DNA of 64,000 bases, taken from NCBI RefSeq assembly GCF_050320075.1, contig NZ_CP190018.1, one strand, 5' to 3'. Under the pieces are notes generated by a model. The model was not told the origin of the DNA and made no database searches. It saw nothing but the letters and a program-made list of their open reading frames with translations. This stretch comes from Escherichia coli (GTDB taxonomy: Bacteria > Pseudomonadota > Gammaproteobacteria > Enterobacterales > Enterobacteriaceae). The translations under genes were made by a program, and so were the position numbers. Within the stretch, counting starts at the first letter, position 1. Every line of letters starts with the position of its first letter. This document shows, piece by piece, positions 12,374-15,300 of this stretch.

Positions 12374-15300
12374 TTACGCCTTCTCGATGTTGACTAAGAA
12401 CGCTTTATATTCCGGCGTTTGCGAGTTTGCATCACCGACATTCGGCGTCAGAGTGTTAGCGATATAACCTTTACGCGCGACACCCTCAAAGCCCCAGTGG
12501 ATTGGAATACCCACCGTTTCAACCTGCTGACCGTTTACATTCAGCGGTTTCAGACGGCGCGTTACCACCGCCACCGCGCGGATAAATCCACGCTTGCTTG
12601 AGACAGTGACACGATCGCCATTATTAATGCCTTTCGCCGCCGCCAGCGTTTCGCTGATTTCCACAAACTGTTCCGGCTGAGCAATTGCGTTGAGCAACGC
12701 GTGCTTGGTCCAGGTGTGGAAGTGCTCGGTCAGACGATAGGTCGTACCCACATACGGGAACTGCTCTTTTTTACCCATCCGCAGCGCGTCTTGTTCATAC
12801 AGACGAACAACCGGGTTAGACACCACATTCGGATGCAGCGGGTTAGTGCCCAGCGGCGTTTCGATTGGCTCGTAGTGTTCCGGGAACGGACCTTCCGCCA
12901 TTTTGTTGATGGCAAACAGGCGTCCCATCCCTTCCGGCTGCATGATAAACGGTCCGGTTGGTGTACCTGGCGCGGCATTGCCGAAGTCCGGAATATCGTT
13001 ACCCGTCCACTTGCTGCCGTTCCACTGGATCAGCATCCGTTTCGGATCCCACGGTTTACCGTTGATATCCGCCGAAGCACGGTTGTAGAGTACGCGACGG
13101 TTGAGCGGCCACGCCCAGGCCCATCCCAGCGTATTCCCCAGACCGGACGGGTCGGAGTTATCGCGGTTAGCCATCTGGTTGCCCTGCTCTGTCCAGCTAC
13201 CGGTGTAGATCCAGCAAGAAGATGCGGTTGTACCGTCATCACGCAGATGCGCAAAGCTACTCAGCAACTGCCCTTTCTTCGCAATCAGCACACCATTAGC
13301 ATCATAGAGATCTTCCAGCGCATAGCCGTTGTTCTCTTTAGCTACTTCGTCAGATTGCGGTTCGTGCGGCTGCTTGTAGTTCCAGCTCATCTTCATCAGC
13401 GGTTCTACGCCTTTACCACCTTCGGCCTGGTACAGCTCGCGCAGATGATGGTAGATACCCGCCAGAATTTCGCCGTCGTTACGCGCTTCGCCCGGCGCGT
13501 CCTGACCTTTCCAGTGCCACTGCAACCAGCGACCGGAGTTAGCAATAGAACCATCTTCCTCAGCAAAGCAGGTCGAAGGCAGACGGAATACTTCAGTCTG
13601 AATAGACGCAGGATCGACATCGTTCGACTCGCCGTGGTTCTGCCAGAAGGTAGAAGTTTCAGTCACCAGCGGATCGATAACCACCATATACTTCAGCTTG
13701 CTCAGGCAGCTTACCACTTTGTTTTTGTCCGGGAAGGACGCAACCGGGTTAAAGCCCTGGCAGAAATAACCGGTGACTTTGCCTTCATCCATCATGTTGA
13801 AATACTTGATGACGTCGTAGGTCTGGTCCCACTTGGGCAGCCAGTCGTAGCCCCAGTTGTTCTCTTTCTGCGCAGCATCGCCGTAGAAAGATTTCATCAG
13901 GCTAACGAAGAACTTCGGATAGTTGCTCCAGTAGTTCACCTGATCAGCCAGCGTCGCTTTCGGCGTGTTCGCTTCCAGATACGACTGCAAATCAACCTGT
14001 TTTTCTGACGGCAGCGTCAGATAACCCGGCAGGCTGGTAGAGAGCAGGCCTAAGTCGGTCAGCCCCTGAATGTTGGAGTGACCACGCAATGCGTTCACGC
14101 CGCCACCGGCCATACCCATGTTACCGAGCAGTAACTGGATCATCGCCATAGTACGGATGTTCTGCGCACCCACGGTGTGCTGCGTCCAGCCCAGCGCGTA
14201 AAGGAAGGTGGTTGTGCGATCCGGTGCGCTGGTGGAGGCCAGCACTTCACACACTTTCAGGAAGTCGGCTTTTGGCGTACCACAGATGTTTTCTACTACG
14301 TCCGGCGTGTAGCGGGAAACGTGCTCTTTCAGCAAGTTCCACACACAGCGCGGATGAGTCAGTGTTTCATCGCGTTTCGCATAGCCGTTTTCATCGAACT
14401 GATAGTTCCAGGACGATTTATCGTATTGACGTTTTTCAGCGTCGTAGCCGCTGAACAGACCGTCTTCGAAAGCAAAATCATCACGCACCAGCAGACTGGC
14501 GTTGGTGTAATGCTTAACGTATTCGGCGTTGATTTTGTTGTTTTCGATCAGGTAGCGCAAAACGCCAGACAGGAACGTAATGTCCGTACCGGAACGAATA
14601 GGTGCGTAAATATCCGCTACAGAAGCGGTACGCGTAAAACGGGGATCGACAACGATCAAGGTTGCATCGTTGTTGTTTTTCGCTTCCATCGCCCAGCGGA
14701 AACCGACGGGATGCGCTTCAGCAGCGTTACCGCCCATCACCATTACGACGTTAGCGTTTTTGATATCCACCCAGTGGTTGGTCATCGCACCGCGACCAAA
14801 TGTTGGAGCAAGACTTGCTACCGTTGGTCCGTGTCAGACGCGCGCCTGGTTGTCTACCGCCAGCATCCCGAGGGAGCGGGCAAATTTCTGGGTCAGCATC
14901 CCGGTTTCGTTGCTGGCACCGGAGGCACACAGCATACCGGTAGAAAGCCAACGGTTTACCGTTACGCCCTGCTCGTTCTTTTCAATAAAGTTAGCGTCAC
15001 GGTCAGCTTTCATCAGCTTCGCAATACGGGAGAATGCTTCATCCCAGCTAATGCGCTGCCATTTGTCAGAACCTGGCGCACGATATTCCGGGTAGCGCAG
15101 ACGGTTTTCGCTGTTGACGTAATCCAGCAAACCGGCCCCTTTCGGGCATAACGCACCACGGCTTACCGGATGATCCGGGTCACCTTCAATGTGATAAATC
15201 GCTTCTCTGGCGTTTTTCGCGCCATCACCCAGGCTATACATCAATAGCCCGCAACCTACGGAACAGTATGTGCAGGTGTTACGGATCTCTTTAGCGCGTA

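Follow-up and report, generated by a model that had tools for sequence, protein, structure and literature searches.

In Escherichia coli, the SECIS of fdhF (Rfam RF01988, SECIS_2) is the best-studied bacterial element of its kind and is recognised by domain 4 of SelB (WH3/4). In work attributed to Heider (1992), Huttenhofer (1996) and Liu (1998), the minimal E. coli SECIS is said to be the 17-nt upper hairpin, with SelB reportedly contacting a bulged U and the G-U of the loop. A bacterial SECIS (bSECIS) model given in the Fig. 2 legend of a 2026 review (PMC13188914) comprises an apical loop (3-9 nt) on an upper stem (4-16 bp), a G in loop position 1 or 2 that is usually followed by G or U, and a UGA-to-loop distance of 16-37 nt together with a minimum free energy (MFE) of -7.5 kcal/mol or below. 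Among the works cited in the same review, the Sec UGA and SECIS of K-12 fdnG were described in 1991 (Berg, Li, Heider & Stewart 1991; Berg, Baron & Stewart 1991, J Biol Chem 266:22380, 22386), binding of that element by SelB and its requirement for decoding the UGA as Sec were published by Berg, Baron & Stewart 1991, and the full-length, 113-kDa selenium-containing FdnG of K-12 was published as well (Berg et al. 1991; structure 1KQF).

The locus analysed here lies in a stretch of 64,000 nucleotides of E. coli DNA (64 kb; hereafter the window) and corresponds to K-12 fdnG (b1474) in gene, element, Sec codon position, operon and neighbours. The minus-strand interval 12374..15421 is almost certainly an intact fdnG in which UGA codon 196 is decoded as selenocysteine and not as a stop, with a SECIS stem-loop just 3' of it. 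This is textbook biology, already known, to which the locus adds nothing new; the preliminary description had likewise presented it as known, and the element is indeed the same as that of K-12 fdnG described in 1991. The features of the region are as follows.

12374..15421, minus strand: fdnG, alpha subunit of formate dehydrogenase-N, 1015 codons plus TAA, with one UGA almost certainly read through (Sec196)
14836..14834, minus strand: selenocysteine codon UGA (codon 196), the sole internal stop of the frame, aligned with X196 of 1KQF
14834..15421, minus strand: 195-codon ORF piece, which holds the FdnG N terminus and its RRQFF leader of twin-arginine type and stops at the UGA
12374..14785, minus strand: 803-codon ORF piece, beginning at Met213, the first ATG past the UGA
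14781..14839, minus strand: SECIS element in the limits of Rfam SECIS_3 (RF01989), 84.3 bits (gathering score 63; E = 9e-20), covering the whole model (positions 1-59)
14789..14834, minus strand: whole stem-loop with lower stem in the ViennaRNA-preferred register, 5' arm 14834..14824 and 3' arm 14799..14789
14805..14822, minus strand: apical hairpin GG-U-AGCAA/GUC/UUGCU-CC of 7 bp, with bulged U at 14820 and loop G-U-C at 14814..14812, beginning 11 nt past the UGA
14774..14839, minus strand: footprint of synonymous-site conservation in Enterobacterales, clear for codons -1 to +16 and weaker for +17 to +20
11477..12361, minus strand: fdnH, beta subunit, the next operon gene, a 294-aa ORF that maps to annotated fdnH in two loci (L001, L127)
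10831..11484, minus strand: fdnI, gamma subunit, the last operon gene, with the ORF end at 10831 and the start at 11484 mapped from annotated fdnI in one locus (L127)

Translated in a single frame, 12374..15421 yields 1015 codons with the TGA of codon 196 as the lone internal stop and a terminal TAA, and the frame runs 819 further codons beyond the UGA; the other two frames of the interval hold 50 and 62 stops. The 195- and 803-codon pieces share this frame, because the 51 nt between them are 17 codons. A frame difference between the two was looked for and none was found, which bears out the earlier proposal that they form one gene read through an in-frame UGA. For the protein searches (PDB, Pfam, TIGR01553), Sec196 was entered as Cys. 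The NCBIfam equivalog TIGR01553 is matched unbroken at 1626 bits, with a cut-off of 814.2, residues 2-1014 falling on profile positions 1-1009. All 1015 residues align without gaps to chain A of PDB 1KQF, the solved Fdh-N structure, in which Sec196 is visible in the crystal, and the UGA codon stands opposite its Sec (X) 196. The window gene is 100% identical to the fdnG CDSs of many RefSeq E. coli and differs from K-12 fdnG by 60 nucleotides and 3 amino acids, a strain-level polymorphism. Alignment with K-12 around Sec196, which had been put forward as a check, shows 63 identical nucleotides starting 3 nt before the UGA; the closest mismatch is at gene nt 678, 90 nt downstream of the UGA and beyond the element.

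The SECIS_3 match at 14781..14839 on the minus strand is the only SECIS match in the 64 kb. Its 84-bit score reflects identity with a known family and not independent support, because the RF01989 seed very probably holds E. coli fdnG and fdoG. E. coli fdoG (b3894), a paralogue with 74% DNA and 77% protein identity that belongs to a separate operon (fdoGHI-fdhE) at a separate locus, reaches the same 84.3 bits, has its Sec likewise at codon 196, and is perfectly identical to fdnG over 71 nt from 3 nt before the UGA. The fdhF SECIS resembles that of fdnG in the CACGG that follows the UGA, the 11-nt spacing to the apical hairpin, the GG-U bulge at the foot of the upper stem and the G-U within the loop, but its apical hairpin has 17 nt (GGUUGCAGGUCUGCACC) against 18 nt in fdnG, and its lower-stem sequence is different. 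The window scores only 28.8 bits on the SECIS_2 model, and fdhF only 35.8 bits on SECIS_3.

The fdnG stem-loop begins at or next to the in-frame UGA, inside the coding region, and lies within all four constraints of the bSECIS model in PMC13188914. Its loop is 3 nt, GUC (5 nt if the closing A-U opens), and starts with G14814, followed by U14813 and C14812; the upper stem has 7 bp with one bulged U, and the UGA is separated from the loop by 19 nt (14833..14815) and from the upper-stem base by 11 nt. The folding that had been suggested as a check returns a hairpin after the UGA, at an MFE of -14.6 kcal/mol for 51 nt and -17.4 kcal/mol for the 59 nt matched by Rfam. The apical hairpin is predicted in every fold, with pair probabilities of 0.55-1.0 in a 141-nt context. 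As a measure of stability this check is uninformative by itself, because shuffled sequences fold nearly as well: z is -0.76 for the 51 nt and -0.77 for the 59 nt, and 41 and 39 of 200 shuffles, respectively, fold at least as well. Hairpin energy alone is thus no better than that of shuffled sequence, and the support for the structure is comparative.

This comparison covered 68 distinct homologous sites from many genera of Gamma-, Beta- and Alphaproteobacteria, Actinomycetota, Terriglobia and others. Pairing of the apical helix reaches 99.6%, whereas slid controls reach only 26-49%. Pair 24-30 is A-U in 46 sites, C-G in 18 and G-C in 4, and pair 21-33 is G-C in 52, A-U in 10 and G-U in 6, with no site unpaired at either position; both sides have changed in 22 of the 68 sequences at the former pair and in 10 at the latter. 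Protein coding does not account for this coupling, because all four columns are third codon positions. Loop positions G26 and U27 are invariant in 68/68 homologues. The structure is therefore conserved in evolution, with compensatory base changes in the apical helix.

A corresponding signal is seen at synonymous sites. Across 21 distinct fdnG/fdoG homologues of Enterobacterales, third bases are the same as in the window at 97% in codons -1 to +18 and at 56% elsewhere, and the per-codon table has sharp edges at codons -2 and +22. The 60-mer of the window is found identical in 17 loci, including those of Photorhabdus, Providencia, Yersinia, Citrobacter, Enterobacter and Klebsiella. Third-base identity was also scored against the window for all 80 alignable homologues, drawn from every clade, and no dip stood out. 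In GC-rich clades the helix occurs in compensated versions; the footprint becomes clear once the set is limited to Enterobacterales.

If the TGA were a genuine nonsense codon, fdnG would be a pseudogene or truncated gene and the 803-codon ORF a decaying remnant. Such an account agrees with a plain ORF list, which gives two pieces, and with the many database records that hold the two fragments as separate proteins, but we regard it as exceedingly improbable, since the same TGA is found in K-12 fdnG, in fdoG and in homologues from many phyla, and in 5385 E. coli records the 141 nt around it show an identity of 99% or more. The TGA is also present in 108/108 FdnG/FdoG-type loci of other genera, these loci having been picked by a pattern containing TGA. 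Downstream of the codon, the window and K-12 genes differ by 50 synonymous and 2 non-synonymous changes, which indicates that the 803-codon part is translated and under purifying selection; the 1KQF protein is full length with Sec at 196, and a SECIS element follows the codon directly. A pseudogene and a pair of separate genes were both rejected on the conservation of the TGA within and between genera and on the Pfam molybdopterin domain (PF00384), whose match spans residues 107-589 and so bridges residue 196. That this uninterrupted gene could be fdoG (formate dehydrogenase-O) or another paralogue is suggested by the identical SECIS of fdoG and its Sec at codon 196, yet the probability is practically negligible. 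DNA identity is 98.0% to K-12 fdnG against 74.4% to fdoG, the protein has 1015 aa where that of fdoG has 1016 aa, and the neighbours are yddG, fdnH, fdnI, yddM and adhP, in the order yddG / fdnG-fdnH-fdnI / yddM-adhP, rather than fdhD, fdoH, fdoI and fdhE. Synteny and identity thus refute fdoG and confirm the name fdnG that the gene had been given from its letters.

For the conserved nucleotides after the UGA, gene conversion between fdnG and fdoG, or constraint on codons and amino acids, could be invoked in place of RNA structure. The 71-nt perfect run in two otherwise 74% identical genes speaks for such a view, and the peptide HGPTVASLAPTFGRGAMTN is itself highly conserved. Conversion within a genome, however, cannot account for 60-mer identity across at least 8 genera, nor for the compensatory changes that different clades show where third codon positions pair, and both forms of the argument are opposed by a Cys paralogue whose peptide is almost unchanged although its synonymous bases differ; we consider them very improbable. 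This paralogue, the FDH-N of plasmid pN96-1 (WP_000395613.1), is like fdnG in its three-gene operon, its protein identity of about 70% and its active-site peptide, but carries TGT (Cys) in place of TGA at the Sec codon. Its downstream peptide is changed by one Ser-to-Ala in the compared stretch and is encoded with different synonymous bases; the loop G has become C, 2 of the 7 apical pairs are lost, and the SECIS_3 score of 44.7 bits falls under the gathering score, so that no SECIS is called. It is a natural control, in which the constraint is gone without the Sec codon.

With RNA structure as the preferred reading, the mechanism would follow the one established for formate dehydrogenases in E. 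coli. Directly after the UGA the mRNA folds into the SECIS stem-loop, and the C-terminal domains of SelB, which carries Sec-tRNA(Sec) and GTP, would bind the apical hairpin (14822..14805), probably the SelB-binding part of the element. When the UGA enters the A site, the tethered SelB would compete with release factor 2 and hand over Sec-tRNA(Sec); the lower stem would then melt and translation would proceed into the 803-codon part. Sec196 would then ligate the molybdenum of the bis-MGD cofactor. That SelB binds, that this strain inserts Sec and that Sec196 acts at the metal are here taken from established knowledge and should be read as probable. The 64-kb window contains none of selA, selB, selC and selD and no tRNA gene; among 5426 complete E. 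coli genomes, 5425 carry selA-selB, a species-level frequency from which the Sec machinery is expected in this genome too.

The lower stem is less clear-cut. Its two candidate registers have 85.9% and 83.7% of cells paired across the 68 sites, so covariation decides neither and the assignment is ambiguous. By energy, the ViennaRNA-preferred register reaches -17.4 kcal/mol and the Rfam register -7.2 kcal/mol, the latter with two non-canonical pairs on the window sequence (A8-C48, A12-G44). On these grounds the Rfam register was rejected as the best fold here and retained as the family consensus. An outer helix 1-3/54-56, present in the 59-nt MFE fold, was also rejected, pair 3-54 being unpaired in 34 of the 68 sequences. 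A12 co-occurs with U45, and two Oxalobacteraceae sequences carry U12 with A45. In Enterobacterales the lower stem appears to pair one nucleotide off the register of the Rfam SECIS_3 consensus.

Synonymous conservation extends to about codon +20 (14774), some 15-25 nt past the 3' end of the hairpin. Taken together, the shifted register and this longer footprint may point to a lineage-specific extended element, a reading we consider unlikely; if true, it might tune the unwinding of the helix ahead of the ribosome or give a further contact. Simpler explanations are a preference among two-fold codons and fdnG/fdoG gene conversion. The standard description of the fdnG SECIS omits both the shifted register and the 3' extension of the footprint.

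For annotation, the site is a practical trap, in that a gene caller without selenoprotein logic cuts fdnG in two; the general problem for selenoprotein genes is described in the 2026 review (PMC13188914). The preliminary description had warned of such a mis-call, and the public protein collection does contain separate records for the exact 195-aa and 803-aa fragments, with at least 1000 contigs for each. RefSeq/PGAP gives one CDS in every row listed, so the mis-call is to be blamed on ab initio gene callers and not on curated pipelines. The interval 14786..14836 that had been marked for the recoding site does include the UGA, but its strand was left unstated and the feature is on the minus strand. 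It consists of the TGA plus 48 nt, up to just before the ATG at 14785..14783 (Met213); the hairpin placed in those 48 nt is present, but the figure does not measure the element: it arises from the calling of ORFs and gives the spacing to the next ATG. Scans that flag adjacent in-frame ORFs or pseudogenes should mask this UGA site. It is also a clean positive control for detecting RNA structure within coding sequence, because synonymous sites are 97% conserved inside the element and 56% outside, wobble positions covary perfectly and a natural Cys control exists. One of the fragment records bears the wrong name sulfate-binding protein.

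The fdnG gene of the window lies on the minus strand, which corrects the preliminary description, and its translation (12374..15421) yields 1015 sense codons in a single frame with a terminal TAA. The sole internal stop is a TGA at codon 196 (14836..14834), and 50 and 62 stops interrupt the remaining two frames; the two ORFs are thus one frame with an in-frame UGA, as had been proposed. The interval 14786..14836 comprises this TGA and 48 nt, followed by the ATG of Met213 (14785..14783), at which mechanical ORF listing restarts. As the 48 nt end exactly before this ATG, the two pieces share a frame. 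"48 nt" does not stand as an element length: it is the distance to Met213, a product of ORF calling and no property of the RNA element. The features concerned are:

14834..15421, minus strand, 195-aa piece in the ORF list
12374..14785, minus strand, 803-aa piece in the ORF list
14781..14839, minus strand, SECIS_3 (RF01989) match, full model, 59 nt, 84.3 bits (gathering score 63, E = 9e-20)
14834..14789, minus strand, hairpin core from folding
14822..14805, minus strand, apical hairpin GG-U-AGCAA / GUC / UUGCU-CC, present in all folds and contexts tried
3′ reach to ~14774, minus strand, footprint of synonymous-site conservation in Enterobacterales

All 3048 nt of the gene agree at 100% identity with CDSs that numerous RefSeq E. 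coli genomes annotate as fdnG, and 5425 of the 5426 complete genomes contain a match. The fdo locus was rejected, since the neighbours, divergent yddG and, on the other side, fdnH, fdnI, an IS200/IS605 tnpA, yddM and adhP, are those of the fdn locus; DNA identity to K-12 fdoG is 74.4% and protein identity 76.8%. Relative to K-12 fdnG there are 60 nucleotide and three amino-acid differences (D127E, F342L, A666S), and because no nucleotide difference is nearer to the recoding site than gene nt 678, 90 nt 3′ of the UGA, the SECIS element is the same in both. Differences from K-12 fdnG 3′ of the UGA are 50 synonymous versus 2 non-synonymous, indicating that the 803-codon part is translated and under purifying selection. 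In protein searches, with Sec196 entered as Cys, FdnG matched the NCBIfam equivalog TIGR01553 in one stretch (residues 2-1014; 1626 bits, cut-off 814), and Pfam PF00384 spans residues 107-589, position 196 included. A gap-free alignment also matches the protein to PDB 1KQF chain A over its full 1015 residues, and position 196 of that chain (X, the selenocysteine) lies opposite the UGA codon.

The SECIS_3 match is the only SECIS hit in the 64-kb window at gathering thresholds, and the fdhF-type model SECIS_2 scores 28.8 bits on the same site. As positive controls, K-12 fdoG scored 84.3 bits on SECIS_3 and fdhF 87.1 bits on SECIS_2. Folding of the site gives a single stem-loop, whose apical hairpin has pair probabilities of 0.55-1.0 in a 141-nt context and starts 11 nt past the UGA, exactly the spacing of the fdhF upper hairpin. 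The element satisfies all four constraints of the bacterial SECIS model, namely a 3-9 nt loop on a 4-16 bp stem, MFE of at most -7.5 kcal/mol, a G within the first two loop positions, and a UGA-to-loop distance of 16-37 nt (PMC13188914), here 19 nt. Recoding at fdnG is already known biology. SelB, loaded with GTP and Sec-tRNA(Sec), attaches to the apical part of this hairpin; the lower helix opens as the ribosome draws near, and with the UGA in the A site Sec-tRNA(Sec) is handed over by SelB, after which the hairpin forms again (PMC13188914); the review cites Berg, Baron and Stewart 1991 for the fdnG stem-loop being essential for decoding its UGA. The UGA in the window would be decoded by this established route. 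Trans-acting Sec genes are absent from the 64-kb window, as are tRNA genes by ARAGORN, and of the 5426 complete E. coli genomes, 5425 have selA-selB.

Folding downstream of the UGA, the check suggested in the preliminary description, did recover a hairpin, but its stability does not distinguish the site from shuffled sequence. No energy advantage was found for 51 nt (MFE -14.6 kcal/mol, z = -0.76; 41 of 200 shuffles are as stable or more so) or 59 nt (-17.4 kcal/mol, z = -0.77; 39 of 200). Stability alone is hence an invalid test of SECIS here. The SECIS_3 score is not independent support either, as the Rfam seed very probably contains E. coli fdnG/fdoG. Comparative evidence was therefore sought.

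A single scan of species-representative genomes with the codon-degenerate pattern A-R-V-UGA-H-G-P-x-V-A returned at least 120 loci, with 119 usable sites among the matches listed (108 FdnG/FdoG-type, 11 FdhF-type). The 108 comprise 68 distinct 60-mers, the window's own included, and in this set 99.6% of the apical-helix cells are paired; when the 3′ partners are slid by 1-3 columns, pairing is 26-49%. For pair 24-30 the same 68 have 46 A-U, 18 C-G and 4 G-C, and for pair 21-33 they have 52 G-C, 10 A-U and 6 G-U, with none unpaired at either. As each of these four columns is the third position of a codon (Val/Ala and Ala/Leu), the protein cannot be the source of the coupling.

Synonymous sites point the same way. 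The window 60-mer is unchanged in 17 loci among the matches listed, with carriers in Photorhabdus, Providencia, Yersinia, Citrobacter, Enterobacter, Klebsiella, Superficieibacter and E. albertii. Among 21 distinct enterobacterial fdnG/fdoG homologues, whose flanks share 68-96% identity with the window, the third base of a synonymous-comparable codon equals the window's in 97% of cases in codons -1 to +18 versus 56% elsewhere, with sharp edges at codons -2 and +22. Like the covariation, this supports the hairpin proposed after the UGA. Conservation also extends ~15-25 nt beyond where the predicted hairpin ends on its 3′ side (14774-14788, minus strand; codons +16 to +20), with 19-20 of 21 sequences conserved per degenerate codon (+17 is ATG), and breaks off sharply at codon +22 (2 of 21). 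Part of this may reflect codon bias at AAC and CAC.

The lower stem is less clear-cut. The Rfam register, which suits Pseudomonas and Burkholderia sequences, leaves A8-C48 and A12-G44 unpaired in the window (-7.2 kcal/mol), and a register moved by one nucleotide gives -17.4 kcal/mol; with 85.9% and 83.7% of cells paired, covariation strongly supports neither. Only the register in Enterobacterales and the 3′ conservation to about codon +20 are mildly unexplained, and two-fold-codon preference or fdnG/fdoG gene conversion may explain both. K-12 fdnG and fdoG share a perfect 71-nt run starting 3 nt before the UGA, the longest in the gene (the second longest is 35 nt).

On some E. coli plasmids there is a third fdnGHI-like operon, bordered by remnants of IS66, IS21 and IS3; the example compared lies on plasmid pN96-1 of E. 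coli N96 (NZ_JBXULY010000002.1, 5413-10009, outside the window). The alpha subunit it encodes, ~70% identical to FdnG in protein, has TGT (Cys) at codon 196 where the window has TGA. The peptide downstream, HGPTVAALAPTFGRGAMTN, is nearly that of FdnG. Of the 15 codons after the Cys codon, 9 are different, almost every change being synonymous; the loop has C in place of G, two of seven apical pairs are lost, and SECIS_3 scores 44.7 bits, under threshold. This paralogue, which has no SECIS, serves as a natural negative control. In a search with the sequence around the fdnG UGA, 25 of the matches lay on plasmids.

The predicted mis-calling of the gene as two ORFs does occur: proteins with exactly the 195-aa and exactly the 803-aa sequence exist in the public protein collection, and either one is found on 1000 or more contigs. 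Both have UniRef entries of their own, with labels like "formate dehydrogenase subunit alpha" attached to them. The RefSeq/PGAP rows examined each hold a single fdnG CDS, and the review describes the general annotation problem (PMC13188914). The original observation is thus confirmed and its interpretation supported, with three corrections: strand, "48 nt", and stability as a test. One 195-aa N-terminal fragment, EFN8991448.1 (cluster window:14837-15421:-), goes by "sulfate ABC transporter substrate-binding protein" at NCBI, a naming error that follows from the split gene call.

Upstream of the window fdnG, the Rfam search reported no match comparable to that in the K-12 fdoG leader (3094-3292 of that locus, outside the window), where the FdoG-1 5′ UTR thermometer RF02778 scores a sub-threshold 31.9 bits (gathering score 50). 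Divergent yddG (15653-17310, plus strand) is broken by IS1 at ~16151-16924, which accounts for the split ORFs 15653..16237 and 16271..16516; E. coli YZLc1-3 (NZ_CP123240.1), otherwise 100% identical to the window, has the same interruption, annotated as two pseudogene halves. Relative to YZLc1-3 the window lacks ~10.5 kb with dosC, dosP, ddpXABCDF and osmC, and digH directly joins an IS1 copy adjoining bdm (5464-6240, junction ~5471), which looks like an IS1-adjacent deletion. Two IS200/IS605 copies, at 10176-10767 (minus strand; between yddM and fdnI, immediately downstream of the fdn operon) and 49966-50678, each carry a full-length Rfam STnc490 Hfq-binding RNA of 146 bits (10644-10767, minus; 49978-50101, plus). 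At 37202-37310 (minus strand), a group-II-D1D4-2 match (domains 1-4; 48 bits, gathering score 36) suggests a group II intron or fragment elsewhere in the window.
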